Shown here: piece by piece, positions 40,946 through 45,990 of the stretch
Layout of the letters: every line of letters begins with the position of its first letter
Position numbering within the stretch: the stretch's first letter is position 1
From: Escherichia coli
Lineage (GTDB): Bacteria > Pseudomonadota > Gammaproteobacteria > Enterobacterales > Enterobacteriaceae
DNA length: 64,000 bases
Strand: one strand, 5' to 3'
NCBI RefSeq assembly: GCF_003334765.1
Contig: NZ_QOWT01000014.1
Made by a program: the position numbers and the translations under genes
Notes under the pieces: generated by a model
What the model was told of the DNA's origin: nothing
The model's input: the letters and a program-made list of their open reading frames with translations, nothing else
The model's database searches: none

Positions 40946-40953
40946 TTGCCCAA

Positions 40954-40985
40954 TGTGCCAGAGATGCCTCCGGCACAATATTTTA
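40954..40985 (+). terminator. candidate terminator after rhaM
   Basis: GTGCCAGAG-ATGC-CTCCGGCAC imperfect hairpin followed by AATATTTT. Confidence 0.45.
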
Positions 40986-41245
40986 AATTTCGATTTGAAA
41001 AATTAAACATATTACATCTCCCGGTAAGTTATATTTCCCTGATACATTGTGAGTAAATCACAAAAATAATGAATAACCCATTAATGATTCATGTGGTTTA
41101 TTTAAATAACCATTATGTGCATTACTCCGCAAATCTGACCTTTCACTCTGTCTCAAATTGTCATTGTTTACCGACATATCGCCTCTCATCACTTAATCGC
41201 TCCACCATTACAATTGATTAAAATATATTTTATGGAGTCCGATTA

Positions 41246-41692
41246 ATGGCAGCTCTTACTGCAAGCTGTATTGACCTGAATATTCAGGGCAATGGCGCTT
41301 ATTCCGTTCTGAAGCAGTTGGCGACAATAGCGTTACAAAACGGTTTTATCACCGACTCACACCAGTTCCTGCAAACCCTGCTGCTGCGCGAAAAAATGCA
41401 CTCTACTGGATTTGGTTCCGGTGTCGCCGTGCCGCACGGTAAAAGCGCCTGCGTTAAACAACCGTTCGTATTATTCGCCCGCAAAGCGCAGGCTATTGAC
41501 TGGAAAGCCAGCGATGGCGAAGACGTCAATTGCTGGATCTGCCTCGGCGTGCCGCAAAGCGGCGAAGAGGATCAGGTCAAAATCATCGGCACACTGTGTC
41601 GCAAAATTATTCACAAGGAATTTATTCATCAACTGCAACAGGGCGATACCGACCAGGTGCTTGCCTTGTTAAATCAAACCCTCAGCTCATAA
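41246..41692 (+). CDS. frvA: PTS fructose-like enzyme IIA component
   Basis: 148-aa ORF; EIIA(Fru/Mtl/Ntr)-type with conserved His region SGVAVPHGK. Confidence 0.9.
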   Translation: MAALTASCIDLNIQGNGAYSVLKQLATIALQNGFITDSHQFLQTLLLREKMHSTGFGSGVAVPHGKSACVKQPFVLFARKAQAIDWKASDGEDVNCWICLGVPQSGEEDQVKIIGTLCRKIIHKEFIHQLQQGDTDQVLALLNQTLSS

Positions 41693-41702
41693 GGAAGTGG
41701 CG

Positions 41703-43154
41703 ATGGAGCCATCCTTACGTATTGTCGCGATCACCAACTGCCCCGCCGGGATCGCTCACACCTACATGGTGGCGGAAGCCCTGGAACAGAAAGCCCGTTC
41801 TCTCGGTCATACCATAAAAGTGGAAACTCAAGGGTCCAGTGGCGTTGAAAACCGCTTATCCAGCGAAGAGATTGCCGCTGCCGATTACGTCATTCTCGCT
41901 ACCGGGCGTGGCCTGAGCGGTGATGATCGCGCGCGGTTTGCCGGGAAGAAAGTTTATGAGATTGCCATCTCCCAGGCGTTGAAAAATATCGACCAGATTT
42001 TCAGCGAATTACCGACAAACTCGCAGCTTTTTGCCGCAGATAGCGGCGTGAAGCTTGGCAAACAGGAAGTGCAAAGCGGTAGCGTGATGAGCCACCTGAT
42101 GGCGGGCGTCTCTGCGGCGCTGCCGTTTGTCATCGGCGGTGGTATCCTGGTGGCGCTTGCCAACATGCTGGTGCAGTTCGGTTTGCCGTATACCGATATG
42201 TCGAAAGGCGCGCCGTCGTTTACCTGGGTAGTTGAATCCATCGGTTACCTTGGCTTCACCTTTATGATCCCCATCATGGGCGCTTATATTGCCTCGTCGA
42301 TTGCCGATAAACCGGCTTTCGCTCCGGCGTTTCTGGTTTGCTATCTGGCGAACGACAAAGCGCTGCTCGGCACCCAGTCGGGTGCGGGATTCCTCGGCGC
42401 GGTGGTGCTGGGGCTGGCGATTGGCTATTTCGTCTTCTGGTTCCGCAAAGTGCGCCTTGGCAAAGCATTACAACCGCTGCTCGGTTCAATGCTGATCCCG
42501 TTCGTTACTCTGCTGGTTTTCGGCGTGCTCACTTACTACGTTATCGGGCCGGTGATGTCCGACCTCATGGGCGGGCTGCTCCACTTCCTGAATACCATTC
42601 CTCCATCAATGAAGTTTGCGGCAGCGTTTCTGGTCGGTGCGATGCTGGCGTTCGATATGGGCGGCCCCATCAATAAAACCGCCTGGTTCTTCTGCTTCTC
42701 ACTGCTGGAAAAACACATTTATGACTGGTACGCCATCGTCGGCGTTGTCGCGCTGATGCCGCCCGTCGCGGCGGGTCTTGCGACGTTCATTGCGCCCAAA
42801 CTGTTTACCCGACAGGAAAAAGAGGCTGCCAGTAGTGCCATTGTGGTCGGTGCCACAGTCGCAACCGAACCGGCTATTCCTTACGCTCTGGCAGCTCCGT
42901 TGCCGATGATTACCGCCAATACGCTGGCGGGCGGCATTACCGGCGTGCTGGTGATCGCTTTCGGAATCAAACGTCTGGCACCTGGTTTGGGTATCTTTGA
43001 CCCGCTGATCGGCCTGATGTCGCCGGTGGGTTCGTTTTATCTGGTGCTGGCGATTGGCCTCGCGCTGAACATTTCATTCATTATCGTCCTGAAAGGATTG
43101 TGGTTACGCCGCAAAGCGAAAGCCGCGCAACAGGAGCTTGTCCATGAACATTGA
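41703..43154 (+). CDS. frvB: PTS fructose-like enzyme IIBC component
   Basis: Track starts at GTG 41697; ATG at 41703 has SD AAGGAAG 5 nt upstream and gives 483 aa; N-terminal IIB Cys motif (ITNCPAGIAHTYM) plus polytopic IIC. Confidence 0.9.
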   Translation: MEPSLRIVAITNCPAGIAHTYMVAEALEQKARSLGHTIKVETQGSSGVENRLSSEEIAAADYVILATGRGLSGDDRARFAGKKVYEIAISQALKNIDQIFSELPTNSQLFAADSGVKLGKQEVQSGSVMSHLMAGVSAALPFVIGGGILVALANMLVQFGLPYTDMSKGAPSFTWVVESIGYLGFTFMIPIMGAYIASSIADKPAFAPAFLVCYLANDKALLGTQSGAGFLGAVVLGLAIGYFVFWFRKVRLGKALQPLLGSMLIPFVTLLVFGVLTYYVIGPVMSDLMGGLLHFLNTIPPSMKFAAAFLVGAMLAFDMGGPINKTAWFFCFSLLEKHIYDWYAIVGVVALMPPVAAGLATFIAPKLFTRQEKEAASSAIVVGATVATEPAIPYALAAPLPMITANTLAGGITGVLVIAFGIKRLAPGLGIFDPLIGLMSPVGSFYLVLAIGLALNISFIIVLKGLWLRRKAKAAQQELVHEH

Positions 43155-44214
43155 GTTACTGCAACAGTTGTGCGAAGCCAGCGCCGTCAGCGGCGATGAA
43201 CAGGAAGTTCGCGACATTCTGATAAACACGCTGGAACCTTGCGTGAATGAAATCACCTTCGATGGTCTGGGCAGCTTTGTTGCCCGTAAGGGGAATAAAG
43301 GTCCAAAAGTTGCCGTTGTCGGACATATGGATGAAGTCGGCTTTATGGTCACCCACATCGACGAGAGCGGTTTTCTGCGTTTTACCACCATTGGCGGCTG
43401 GTGGAATCAGTCGATGCTCAACCACCGGGTAACCATACGCACACACAAGGGAGTGAAAATCCCTGGTGTGATTGGTTCCGTCGCGCCTCATGCGTTAACG
43501 GAAAAGCAAAAGCAACAACCGCTGTCATTTGATGAGATGTTCATTGATATTGGCGCGAACAGTCGCGAAGAGGTGGAAAAGCGCGGCGTGGAAATTGGTA
43601 ATTTTATTAGCCCGGAAGCCAATTTTGCCTGCTGGGGCGAAGATAAAGTGGTCGGCAAGGCGTTGGATAACCGCATCGGCTGCGCAATGATGGCTGAACT
43701 ATTGCAGACGGTGAATAATCCCGAAATTACGCTGTATGGCGTTGGCAGTGTGGAAGAAGAAGTTGGGCTACGCGGGGCGCAAACCTCGGCGGAACACATT
43801 AAACCGGACGTCGTGATCGTGTTGGATACCGCCGTAGCGGGCGATGTTCCGGGCATTGATAACATTAAATACCCGCTGAAACTGGGCCAGGGGCCGGGGC
43901 TGATGCTGTTTGACAAGCGCTACTTCCCCAACCAGAAACTGGTAGCAGCGTTAAAAAGCTGTGCCGCACATAACGATTTACCGCTGCAATTTTCCACCAT
44001 GAAAACCGGTGCGACGGATGGCGGGCGCTACAACGTGATGGGCGGCGGGCGTCCGGTTGTCGCGCTGTGTCTGCCAACTCGTTATCTGCACGCCAACAGC
44101 GGTATGATTTCAAAAGCCGATTACGAAGCTCTGCTCACGCTGATACGGGGTTTTCTGACGACCTTAACTGCGGAGAAAGTCAACGCGTTTAGCCAGTTCC
44201 GTCAGGTGGATTAA
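43144..44214 (+). CDS. frvX: M42-family aminopeptidase/cellulase-like protein FrvX
   Basis: Track starts at TTG 43138; ATG at 43144 with SD AGGAG 7 nt upstream gives 356 aa MNIELLQQLCEASAVSGDEQEVRDIL. Confidence 0.9.
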   Translation: MNIELLQQLCEASAVSGDEQEVRDILINTLEPCVNEITFDGLGSFVARKGNKGPKVAVVGHMDEVGFMVTHIDESGFLRFTTIGGWWNQSMLNHRVTIRTHKGVKIPGVIGSVAPHALTEKQKQQPLSFDEMFIDIGANSREEVEKRGVEIGNFISPEANFACWGEDKVVGKALDNRIGCAMMAELLQTVNNPEITLYGVGSVEEEVGLRGAQTSAEHIKPDVVIVLDTAVAGDVPGIDNIKYPLKLGQGPGLMLFDKRYFPNQKLVAALKSCAAHNDLPLQFSTMKTGATDGGRYNVMGGGRPVVALCLPTRYLHANSGMISKADYEALLTLIRGFLTTLTAEKVNAFSQFRQVD

Positions 44215-45962
44215 TGCTAAACGAACGCCAGTTAAAGATTGTCGATCTGCTGGAGCAACAGCCGCGCACGCCTGGCGAGCTGGCGCAACAGACTGGCGTT
44301 TCAGGCAGGACCATCCTGCGTGATATTGACTATCTCAACTTCACCCTTAACGGCAAAGCCCGCATTTTCGCCAGTGGCAGTGCGGGCTATCAGCTGGAAA
44401 TCTTCGAGCGCCGCAGCTTTTTTCAGTTGCTGCAAAAGCACGATAACGACGATCGGCTGCTGGCGCTGTTATTACTGAATACTTTCACTCCCCGTGCGCA
44501 ACTCGCCTCGGCGCTTAATTTGCCAGAAACGTGGGTAGCAGAGCGTCTGCCCCGGTTAAAACAGCGTTATGAACGCACTTGTTGCCTGGCCAGCCGCCCT
44601 GGTTTGGGCCATTTCATTGATGAGACAGAAGAGAAACGCGTTATCTTGCTGGCGAACTTGCTGCGCAAAGATCCGTTTTTAATTCCGCTGGCGGGCATAA
44701 CACGAGACAACCTTCAGCATTTATCCACGGCCTGCGACAACCAACACCGCTGGCCGCTCATGCAGGGTGATTATCTCTCCAGCCTGATTCTGGCGATTTA
44801 CGCCCTGCGTAATCAACTGACCGATGAGTGGCCGCAATATCCCGGTGACGAGATAAAACAAATCGTTGAACATAGCGGTCTGTTTCTTGGTGATAACGCT
44901 GTAAGAACCCTGACGGGTTTGATAGAGAAACAGCATCAGCAAGCGCAGGTAATTTCAGCCGATAATGTGCAGGGGTTGCTGCAAAGGGTGCCGGGCATCG
45001 CGTCATTGAATATTATTGATGCGCAGCTGGTTGAGAATATTACCGGGCATTTATTACGTTGCCTTGCCGCACCAGTGTGGATTGCTGAGCACCGCCAGAG
45101 CAGCATGAATAACCTGAAAGCCGCCTGGCCTGCGGCCTTTGATATGAGTCTGCACTTTATTACGCTACTGCGTGAACAGCTCGATATTCCCCTTTTCGAC
45201 AGCGATCTGATCGGTTTGTATTTTGCCTGTGCGCTGGAGCGGCATCAAAACGAACGCCAGCCGATCATTTTGCTCTCGGACCAGAACGCGATTGCCACTA
45301 TTAATCAGCTCGCCATTGAGCGCGATGTTTTAAATTGTCGGGTAATTATTGCCCGTAGCTTAAGCGAACTTGTTGCCATTCGCGAAGAGATTGAGCCGTT
45401 ATTGATCATTAACAACAGCCATTATTTACTGGATGACGCGGTAAATAATTACATCACCGTAAAAAATATCATTACGGCTGCCGGTATCGAACAAATAAAA
45501 CATTTTCTGGCGACGGCATTTATTCGCCAACAGCCGGAGCGTTTTTTCTCTGCCCCCGGAAGTTTTCATTATTCGAATGTACGCGGTGAAAGCTGGCAAC
45601 ATATTACCCGGCAAATTTGTGCGCAATTAGTCGCACAACACCATATTACCGCCGATGAAGCACAACGCATCATCGCCCGCGAAGGCGAAGGTGAAAACCT
45701 GATTGTTAATCGCCTCGCCATCCCACATTGCTGGAGCGAACAGGAGCGACGTTTTCGTGGATTTTTTATTACCCTCGCCCAACCAGTTGAGGTGAATAAC
45801 GAAGTCATTAACCATGTCTTGATCGCCTGCGCCGCCGCCGATGCGCGTCATGAGCTAAAAATATTTAGCTATCTGGCAAGCATATTGTGTCAGCATCCGG
45901 CGGAGATTATTGCCGGGTTAACAGGATATGAGGCATTTATGGAGTTACTTCACAAGGGGTGA
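44214..45962 (+). CDS. frvR: frv operon transcriptional regulator (HTH plus PTS-regulation-like domains)
   Basis: 582-aa ORF MLNERQLKIVDLLEQQPRTPGELAQQTGVSGRTILRDIDYL; start overlaps frvX stop by 1 nt. Confidence 0.9.
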   Translation: MLNERQLKIVDLLEQQPRTPGELAQQTGVSGRTILRDIDYLNFTLNGKARIFASGSAGYQLEIFERRSFFQLLQKHDNDDRLLALLLLNTFTPRAQLASALNLPETWVAERLPRLKQRYERTCCLASRPGLGHFIDETEEKRVILLANLLRKDPFLIPLAGITRDNLQHLSTACDNQHRWPLMQGDYLSSLILAIYALRNQLTDEWPQYPGDEIKQIVEHSGLFLGDNAVRTLTGLIEKQHQQAQVISADNVQGLLQRVPGIASLNIIDAQLVENITGHLLRCLAAPVWIAEHRQSSMNNLKAAWPAAFDMSLHFITLLREQLDIPLFDSDLIGLYFACALERHQNERQPIILLSDQNAIATINQLAIERDVLNCRVIIARSLSELVAIREEIEPLLIINNSHYLLDDAVNNYITVKNIITAAGIEQIKHFLATAFIRQQPERFFSAPGSFHYSNVRGESWQHITRQICAQLVAQHHITADEAQRIIAREGEGENLIVNRLAIPHCWSEQERRFRGFFITLAQPVEVNNEVINHVLIACAAADARHELKIFSYLASILCQHPAEIIAGLTGYEAFMELLHKG

Positions 45963-45965
45963 ACT

Positions 45966-45990
45966 GTGTCGGATGCGCCGCATCCGACAC
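45966..45990. terminator. near-perfect 12-bp-arm hairpin between convergent frvR and yiiG
   Basis: GTGTCGGATGCG-C-CGCATCCGACAC directly after frvR stop; REP-like core; no strong T-run. Confidence 0.45.

Follow-up and report, generated by a model that had tools for sequence, protein, structure and literature searches.

Our analysis showed that positions 41246-45962 of the window, by which we mean the whole 64,000-nucleotide stretch of Escherichia coli DNA under study (contig NZ_QOWT01000014.1), are the already named and annotated E. coli frvABXR operon, an intact and self-contained four-gene catabolic module. The operon encodes a permease of the phosphotransferase system (PTS), an M42 peptidase homolog, FrvX, and a regulator, FrvR. 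Our best explanation as a whole, to which we give a rough probability of 0.6, is that frvABXR is intact, is transcribed from an activator-dependent promoter switched by FrvR, takes up a substrate in which a sugar is joined to an amino acid, and stands here in the condition of K-12-type strains, which would have lost an adjoining porin gene. The segment is 100% identical (megablast) to E. coli chromosomes annotated frvA, frvB, frvX and frvR. An earlier reading of this DNA from its letters alone (the sequence-only reading) had given the four genes these identities, and they were borne out by the megablast match, the open reading frames (ORFs) and the family models. The genes are as follows.

41246-41692, + strand: frvA, 148 aa; PTS enzyme IIA (EIIA) of the fructose/mannitol type.
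41703-43154, + strand: frvB, 483 aa from its ATG; PTS EIIB-EIIC permease of the fructose family.
43144-44214, + strand: frvX, 356 aa from its ATG; homolog of M42 (TET-type) dinuclear metallo-aminopeptidases.
44214-45962, + strand: frvR, 582 aa; divergent regulator of the MtlR/LicR/Mga type.

In the ORF listing these four + strand genes follow rhaA-rhaD-rhaM after a gap of 300 bp and are themselves followed by the convergent yiiG and by fdhD. The tight packing described in the sequence-only reading was confirmed by the ORF listing and by direct reading: the overlap is 11 nt between frvB and frvX and 1 nt (TAATG) between frvX and frvR, while frvA and frvB do not overlap and are separated by a 10-nt gap containing AGGAAG. 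An open GTG is also present two codons 5' of the frvB ATG. The 11-nt overlap is retained in 11 of the 12 enterobacterial loci examined, and the 1-nt overlap, among the loci examined, only in E. coli, Citrobacter and Klebsiella. These overlaps suggest that the frv genes are translationally coupled.

FrvA matched the NCBIfam model NF007389 with 289.9 bits (cut-off 151) and TIGR00848 with 146.6 bits (cut-off 103.5), and its phosphorylation-site His64, in the motif VAVPH64G, was invariant across 14 loci, Listeria included. FrvB scored 1032 bits against NF008493 (cut-off 806) and contains the Pfam domains PTS_IIB (E = 1.9e-20) and PTS_EIIC (E = 6e-34). Its phosphorylation-site Cys13, within ITNCPAGIAHTYM, was invariant in all loci, and the motif ITNC13PAGIAHTYMVAEALE was invariant as well, Listeria included, except for one Ile-to-Val change in locus L019. 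By these family matches and conserved sites, FrvA (EIIA, with His64) and FrvB (EIIB with Cys13, plus EIIC) together form a fructose-family PTS permease.

FrvX gave a full-length match to Pfam Peptidase_M42 (PF05343, E = 1.9e-102) and 843.6 bits against NF007367 (cut-off 569). Its nearest solved relative is YsdC of B. subtilis (1vhe, E = 1e-86), and its paralogs YpdE and SgcX are 36% and 29% identical to it. Residues H61, D63, D175, E205, E206, D228 and H316 are invariant among the FrvX orthologs and these two paralogs. The metal ligands H61, D175, E206, D228 and H316 and the catalytic E205 align with the motifs of PhTET2 (1y0r). The offset is a constant 7 across the HMD, DDR, EE, D and H motifs. 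As judged from these residues and the family match, FrvX is a TET-type M42 metallo-aminopeptidase homolog with the complete catalytic set. In Salmonella enterica subsp. houtenae (L006 7733-9000) frvX is called as 370 aa and a 155-nt gap precedes frvR where other loci have an overlap or a short gap, which suggests an altered 3' end, possibly by frameshift. E. coli has three M42 enzymes, of which YpdE alone has been characterised; a dodecameric YpdE has been mentioned as unpublished data (PMC3511314). In work on Crohn's disease, in which seroreactivity and Th17 responses to it are raised, recombinant E. coli FrvX has served as a commensal antigen (PMC6204372), which implies expression of this supposedly cryptic gene in the human gut.

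All four frv genes were intact in each of 14 loci (six E. coli alleles and eight from other genera). The pairwise ratio of nonsynonymous to synonymous divergence (dN/dS), taken at a synonymous divergence of up to 0.5 within E. coli and saturated between genera, was 0.01-0.16, except for one frvA pair at 0.36. By gene, the ranges were 0.08-0.36 for frvA, 0.01-0.08 for frvB, the most constrained of the four, 0.02-0.14 for frvX and 0.07-0.16 for frvR. By this measure the four genes are under purifying selection. A pseudogene cluster, which the sequence-only reading named as an outcome that would refute it, was rejected for the window because the genes are intact, dN/dS is low, and the catalytic and phosphorylation residues are kept.

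FrvR gave only two Pfam matches, HTH_11 (residues 5-60, E = 8e-10) and PTS_EIIA_2 (residues 455-560, E = 3.4e-13). Its sequence found no match in the PDB at E <= 1, and only a fold search was informative. The AlphaFold (AF2) model, with a mean predicted local distance difference test (pLDDT) score of 90.5, can be divided into the following predicted units.

Residues 1-63: winged helix-turn-helix (HTH), from the AF2 model and HTH_11.
Residues 66-135: second, Mga-type HTH, a winged-helix unit in the AF2 model.
Residues 139-345: PRD-like, all-helical region, with the invariant H279 in an HLLR context.
Residues 349-440: EIIB-like alpha/beta domain with no conserved Cys.
Residues 451-582: EIIA-like domain with the invariant P504 and the conserved H505.

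Foldseek matched the body of FrvR to MgaSpn, AtxA, an E. faecalis Mga-like protein and AcpB (E = 3e-10 to 2e-5); the match to Mga/AtxA extends across ~480-500 columns, with residues 139-345 superposed on the Mga/AtxA PRDs. The C-terminus matched EIIA-Ntr, EIIA-Mtl and CmtB, with target TM-scores of 0.63-0.74. Searched exhaustively, a set of 1.84 billion representative proteins yielded 195 relatives of FrvR. In a 45-sequence alignment reaching down to 16-20% identity, R32, T33, G132, H279 and P504 do not vary, and at least 90% of the sequences have H505. The motif AIPH505C is invariant in alignment A4, a second FrvR alignment separate from the one that gave the conservation figures of the 45 relatives. 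Pfam scans of these 45 relatives found PRD in 12-18, Mga in 11-19 and PTS_IIB in 6-7 of them. On the basis of the model, FrvR is a divergent member of the PRD-containing, PTS-controlled regulators with the domain order of MtlR, LicR and ManR, and two candidate phosphorylation sites only, H279 and H505, are predicted in it. Regulators of this type (PRD/Mga) are rare in Enterobacteriaceae, where FrvR occurs.

The sequence-only reading took an AT-rich spacer of 300 bp in front of the operon as a sign of silencing. Its size and low GC content were confirmed, since exactly 300 bp (40946-41245) separate the rhaM stop from the frvA ATG, with a GC content of 0.35-0.38 against ~0.52 for the whole window. 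However, only the proximal 132 bp (41114-41245) are homologous in other alleles and genera, and these carry regulatory motifs. The spacer contains the following features.

40947..41113, no strand assigned: distal AT-rich part, 167 bp, specific to the porin-less (K-12-type) allele.
41116..41131, + strand: CRP-like site TGTGCATTACTCCGCA (TGTG-N8-CGCA), with invariant columns in alignment A1.
41159..41176, no strand assigned: inverted repeat TGTCATTGTTTACCGACA, candidate FrvR operator, consensus TGTCA-N8/9-TGACA.
41186..41214, + strand: predicted promoter core, with a weak -35 TCATCA (41186-41191), a 17-bp spacer and a -10 TACAAT (41209-41214).

The distal part begins with a terminator-like hairpin of rhaM and has no similarity to L001 2548-4325 of O157:H7; it replaces ~1.8 kb of the O157-type alleles, comprising a RafY-type porin gene and its upstream region. 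Alignment A1, made of 13 frvA upstream regions from eight named genera and one further relative, has a mean column identity of 50% and contains three invariant blocks, namely the CRP-like site, the inverted repeat and the -10 box. The CRP-like site lies at -130 from the ATG in 12 of 14 loci and at -119 in Scandinavium, and it reads CGTG-N8-CACA in L008. Five of the six E. coli alleles carry CGCA in its right half; the other genera have TGTG-N8-CACA. Of 14 enterobacterial loci, 13 have the inverted repeat, in a single copy placed at -86 to -88 relative to the ATG. Its core across alignment A1 is TGTC-N10-GACA, extended to TGTCA-N8-TGACA in most genera. The gammaproteobacterium L017, whose FrvR is 40% identical, has CGTCA-N9-TGACA 5' of its EIIA gene. 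All 11 Listeria modules, with FrvR proteins 34-35% identical to that of E. coli, have a perfect TGTCA-N9-TGACA 98-125 nt 5' of the EIIA gene, and L019 has a version with one mismatch, also 5' of its EIIA gene. Because the repeat is found with FrvR homologs across phyla and the probability of such matches by chance is low (by a rough estimate, ~0.001-0.03 per region), it is likely to be an operator of the FrvR family.

The predicted transcription start lies near 41221, which centres the repeat near -53 and the CRP-like site near -97. A sigma-70 consensus scan found no full promoter 5' of frvA, which fits an activator-dependent frvA promoter, and the layout of operator, CRP-like site, weak -35 and good -10 points to a promoter of this kind. 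An RNA leader or riboswitch 5' of frvA was also considered and was dropped, since Rfam gave no match at E <= 0.1.

FrvR orthologs found by word search all belonged to Enterobacteriaceae. Citrobacter, Klebsiella, Salmonella houtenae, Trabulsiella, Enterobacter, Scandinavium, Pseudenterobacter and L008 all share the gene order frvA-frvB-frvX-frvR, and in all of them frv occupies the same site, between rha or azlCD genes and fdhD, with flanks that vary. A frv-type module was found in eight enterobacterial genera, in L017 and in 11 Listeria species, a count in which the spread outside Enterobacteriaceae and Listeria is under-sampled, the narrower FrvR alignment search having returned only Listeria. 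In L017 the same four genes stand alone at an unrelated site. Ten of the 11 environmental Listeria have five genes, encoding EIIA, EIIBC, M42, a PatB-family carbon-sulfur (C-S) lyase (367 bits against TIGR04350, cut-off 340) and the regulator; Listeria L022 gave no M42 match and a partial PatB match only. In L019 a PatB lyase stands in place of M42. Identity between E. coli and Listeria is 78% for FrvB (41703-43154 of the window against L018 4276-5748), 62% for FrvX, 39% for FrvA and 34% for FrvR, a pattern that points to a strongly constrained permease. The module has probably been transferred horizontally between phyla.

The sequence-only reading regarded the pairing of a PTS permease with an M42 protein as unusual and proposed a comparison of genomic context. 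The comparison found the module with the same partners in enterics, L017 and Listeria, and the pairing turned out not to be rare. All three M42 genes of E. coli K-12 lie inside PTS operons: besides frvX, sgcX heads sgcX-sgcB-sgcC-sgcQ-sgcA-sgcE-sgcR, and ypdE is part of fryB-fryC-ypdF-ypdE-fryA. In the enterics and L017 the FrvAB-type permease has M42 as its only enzyme partner; in 10 of the 11 Listeria it has M42 together with PatB, and in L019 it has PatB only. Because the module has a single enzyme, always from an amino-acid-processing family, we infer, more weakly than the rest, that the substrate is a sugar-amino-acid or sugar-peptide conjugate. FrvB would import and phosphorylate a sugar carrying an amino acid or a short peptide, and FrvX would cleave the aminoacyl bond to give a sugar phosphate and an amino acid; a conjugate of this kind would explain why the module needs only one enzyme. 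A RafY-type glycoporin in the ancestral arrangement fits a bulky or scarce substrate. A more specific proposal is that FrvAB(X), with PatB in Listeria, forms a PTS pathway for a sugar joined to an amino acid or short peptide, possibly via cysteine, and that FrvX is a phospho-glyco-amino-acid hydrolase. We put this forward as tentative and, in its full form, doubtful. If true, the substrate class would be new for any PTS, and the same logic would explain the M42-linked fry and sgc PTS operons and the pairings of PTS with MalY/PatB.

With respect to regulation, the promoter is proposed to depend on an activator and to combine a good -10 and a weak -35 with a CRP-like site at ~-97 and an FrvR operator at ~-53. 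When no substrate is available, phosphoryl groups would back up through FrvA and FrvB onto H505 of FrvR and keep it inactive. Transport of the substrate would remove the phosphate from H505, and in the absence of preferred PTS sugars HPr may phosphorylate H279. The active FrvR would then bind its operator and, together with cyclic AMP (cAMP)-CRP, switch the operon on. Regulators of the MtlR/LicR type behave in this manner and are the basis of the switch model, and by analogy with them FrvR would be an activator under PTS phosphorylation control. In K-12-type strains, the loss of the porin and the mismatched right half of the CRP-like site may contribute to the cryptic look of the operon, for which the need for an inducer is another possible reason.

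Among 5426 complete E. coli genomes, frvABXR was present at >=80% coverage in 4185 (77%), the K-12-type spacer in 2826, and a porin gene (464 aa, divergent to frvA) in 2557 (~47%). By subtraction, ~52% of the genomes have frv only, ~25% have both porin and frv, and ~22% have the porin only; most E. coli strains have lost either the porin or frv. The porin is a RafY-type glycoporin according to Pfam (Porin_8, E = 2.7e-153), had no match in NCBIfam, and lies between rhaM and frvA in O157:H7 (L001 2587-3981). The window has no porin gene between 40946 and 41114. O157:H7, the most divergent E. coli frv alleles and Trabulsiella (72% protein identity) all show the arrangement with the porin. This arrangement appears to be ancestral within Escherichia because the other two are each derivable from it by a single deletion. 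K-12-type strains such as that of the window would have lost the ancestral RafY-type porin gene. In the porin-only strain E. coli MS1050 (L002 7835-8525) the frv deletion extends into yiiG, whose annotation there is that of a frameshifted gene without its N-terminus, so that frv was lost in a single larger deletion. Control of the porin by FrvR together with the operon was considered and found unsupported, since the porin-frvA intergenic region has no second inverted repeat.

Variation was also found in frvR. A common allele (cluster P0031, 1875 member sequences) has a stop after residue 448, and codon 449 in the window (45558-45560) is GGA, one change from TGA. The stop removes exactly the EIIA-like domain, and by analogy it could make FrvR constitutively active, or de-repressed, rather than dead. 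Further broken frvR alleles in other strains comprise two frameshifts and one frvB-frvR deletion fusion, and one genome has an IS5 insertion at the frv locus.

Several points weigh against our explanation. FrvX is closest to ordinary TET aminopeptidases (YsdC), and its paralog YpdE was reported as a plain aminopeptidase (cited in PMC3511314). The function of FrvX may thus be no more than peptide degradation. For FrvR there is no Pfam PRD match, the first half of its helical region has no conserved His, which leaves H279 as the sole conserved PRD-type histidine, and the first strand of its EIIB-like domain, IILLSDQ, has Ser, with no Cys conserved in alignment A4. MtlR carries a phosphorylated Cys at this position. 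Since FrvR lacks both this Cys and the first-half His, the phosphorylation logic of MtlR is applicable to it only in part. The transcription start is predicted, so the positions of the operator and the CRP-like site are approximate, and -97.5, where the CRP-like site would be centred, is not among the canonical class I positions. The operator motif is present in one copy per locus and none lies near the porin, which is itself absent from most genera carrying frv. Finally, in the searchable literature we found no paper or experiment supporting any substrate.

A rival view is that FrvAB imports an ordinary fructose-like ketose or hexitol and that FrvX is not an enzyme of the pathway but a general peptide-degrading TET (carbon/nitrogen balance), or a modulator of FrvR in the way MalY binds MalT. 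The standard TET catalytic set of FrvX and its closeness to generic TET enzymes agree with this view, as does malX-malY, in which a PTS permease is paired with a PatB-family lyase of regulatory role (PMC5845896). The translational link of frvX with frvR in E. coli also agrees with it, but that overlap is confined to three genera. A neighbouring cluster in Citrobacter and Klebsiella, with a PfkA-like kinase and a class II aldolase, could process the sugar phosphate; however, in Enterobacter, Scandinavium, Pseudenterobacter, L017 and Listeria the module has no nearby sugar-phosphate enzyme. The recurrence of a peptidase and/or C-S lyase with four PTS families is also hard to call coincidence, and we consider the import of a plain sugar unlikely. 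We consider it very improbable that frvABXR is a decaying remnant in E. coli, without a usable substrate pathway and in the course of being lost, of which the window holds a copy not yet broken. It is true that ~22% of complete genomes lack frv, with one deletion that takes part of yiiG as well, and that only ~25% (by subtraction) keep both porin and frv. Truncating frvR alleles are common, the residue-448 stop foremost, with the two frameshifts, the frvB-frvR fusion and the IS5 insertion in addition, and the CRP half-site is weakened in most E. coli alleles. Yet dN/dS is 0.01-0.16 both within E. coli and across genera, the catalytic and phosphorylation residues are all kept, and the promoter motifs are conserved. 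Moreover, the residue-448 stop removes the EIIA-like domain only and could de-repress FrvR, and FrvX is a seroreactive antigen in the Crohn's disease work, implying expression in vivo (PMC6204372).

In line with the silencing suggested in the sequence-only reading, the operon could be silent mainly because its 300-bp spacer, as an AT-rich sequence, would nucleate silencing by H-NS. The GC content of 0.35-0.38 agrees with this, and frvA figures, next to genes of prophages and others acquired horizontally, in a table that deals with changes of RNA polymerase distribution in an rpoZ mutant (PMC5811629). The paralogous sgcXBCQAER also appears in a study of the SlyA regulon, which describes SlyA as an antagonist of H-NS at its known targets fimB and hlyE (PMC5797941). 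On the other hand, the most AT-rich part of the spacer (40947-41113) is unconserved and present only in the porin-less allele, whereas the conserved part has an activator-type layout of operator, CRP-like site and weak -35. The silence is accounted for by an activator-dependent promoter no less well than by H-NS. H-NS silencing of frv is possible, being neither supported nor excluded by our data, and as the main cause we find it questionable; it is compatible with the explanation that we prefer, that of an intact operon under an FrvR-switched promoter, and not exclusive of it.

Two predicted RNA structures mark the borders of the region.

40954..40977, + strand: terminator-like hairpin directly 3' of rhaM, then AATATTTT; fold -13.3 kcal/mol.
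45966..45990, no strand assigned: perfect 11-bp stem with a 3-nt loop between the convergent frvR and yiiG; fold -19.4 kcal/mol.

None of 200 shuffles folded as well as either structure (z = -4.0 for the hairpin and z = -4.4 for the stem). The hairpin is the end of the rha transcription unit and lies outside frv regulation, and the stem is likely a bidirectional terminator or an element similar to repetitive extragenic palindromic (REP) sequences.

Divergent to frvA, a second cluster was observed in Citrobacter (L005 704-5555), Klebsiella (L009 587-5554) and L008 (548-5396). Its genes encode a PfkA-like kinase, a PTS IIB, a Ula/Gat-type IIC (NF009551, above cut-off), a class II ketose-bisphosphate aldolase, an 89-aa protein, an EIIA and a protein of ~185-186 aa; the 89-aa and ~185-186-aa proteins of the Citrobacter cluster had no match in NCBIfam. 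Salmonella houtenae keeps only decayed fragments of this cluster (L006 2357-4525). We considered whether frv in E. coli might be what is left of an island of two operons and rejected this as a general rule, because Enterobacter, Scandinavium, Pseudenterobacter, Trabulsiella, L017 and Listeria all lack the second cluster and no FrvR operator motif adjoins it. In Klebsiella huaxiensis another PTS island stands directly 3' of frvR (L009 11109-18662), with a sigma-54/PRD LevR-type activator, a mannose-family EIIA/B/C/D, a KdgM porin and a GH88 unsaturated glucuronyl hydrolase. From this, the stretch between rha and fdhD looks to be a hotspot at which islands for sugar uptake collect.

The operon was reportedly first described in the genome era, in the 1990s. 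The claim of the sequence-only reading that its substrate is not established and that it is functionally open still stands, since our full-text literature search, with most subscription journals outside its scope, found no substrate or phenotype assignment for frv. A 2023 review still lists FrvA and FrvB as putative, and frvX has served elsewhere as a "randomly chosen" negative-control gene. The operon and its annotation were already known and our findings are incremental; to them we add a classification of FrvR, a layout of the promoter with its operator, the polymorphism of the porin and the five-gene version of Listeria. The larger question, which dates back to that first description, is why several orphan PTS systems of E. 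coli carry an M42 "aminopeptidase", and what they transport. The candidate operator, the promoter layout and the two predicted regulatory histidines make the substrate question easier to test, and the natural truncation allele of FrvR could serve to switch the operon on. Because K-12 lacks the cognate porin, phenotype screens would be better done in O157-type strains or others with both porin and frv, and environmental Listeria offer a second experimental host, with the module in five genes. The enzyme partner, always amino-acid-processing (M42, PatB C-S lyase, or both), narrows the chemical space to sugar-amino-acid conjugates.

In comparison with known systems, FrvX matches the family of TET M42 aminopeptidases (PhTET2, YsdC 1vhe and YpdE 1ylo) over its full length, but it sits inside a PTS operon, which the archaeal TETs do not. 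Its proposed role parallels that of the phospho-beta-glucosidases in glycoside PTS operons. FrvR shares with MtlR, LicR and ManR of Bacillus and Geobacillus the domain order and a C-terminal EIIA-like domain with the AIPH histidine, and its body shares the fold of the virulence regulators MgaSpn, AtxA and AcpB (the Mga/AtxA/AcpB group). Like the MtlR-type activators, it is encoded in the PTS operon that it presumably controls, with a candidate operator 5' of a weak -35; unlike them, it belongs to a small family and has no Pfam PRD, a single PRD histidine and a Ser in place of the Cys.

With regard to the dedicated glycoporins of sugar operons such as bglGFB-bglH, scrY and rafY, a RafY-type gene likewise adjoins frv in O157-type E. 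coli and Trabulsiella, but it is divergently transcribed, has no FrvR motif nearby and is missing from the window. Pairing of a PTS permease with a PatB/MalY-family pyridoxal phosphate (PLP) enzyme, which parallels the Listeria module with M42 and PatB, is found in malX-malY of E. coli (PMC5845896) and in an accessory cluster of L. sakei LT-13. This cluster encodes two aminopeptidases and two PRD proteins alongside a Lac-family PTS and MalY, and its MalY, which belongs to the PatB family, was demonstrated in that work to act both as a racemase and as a C-S lyase (PMC5845896). The permeases of malX-malY and of the L. sakei cluster belong to other PTS families (Glc and Lac), however, the frv operon of E. 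coli has no PatB, and the established role of MalY is regulatory. The closest parallels are fryBC-ypdFE-fryA and sgcXBCQAER, which like frv are orphan PTS operons with an M42 paralog bearing the same catalytic residues. The sgc operon differs in its Gat-type PTS, its additional SgcE and SgcQ and its DeoR-type SgcR, and fry in its additional YpdF and in FryA, an EI-HPr-EIIA fusion; neither has a regulator of the FrvR type.

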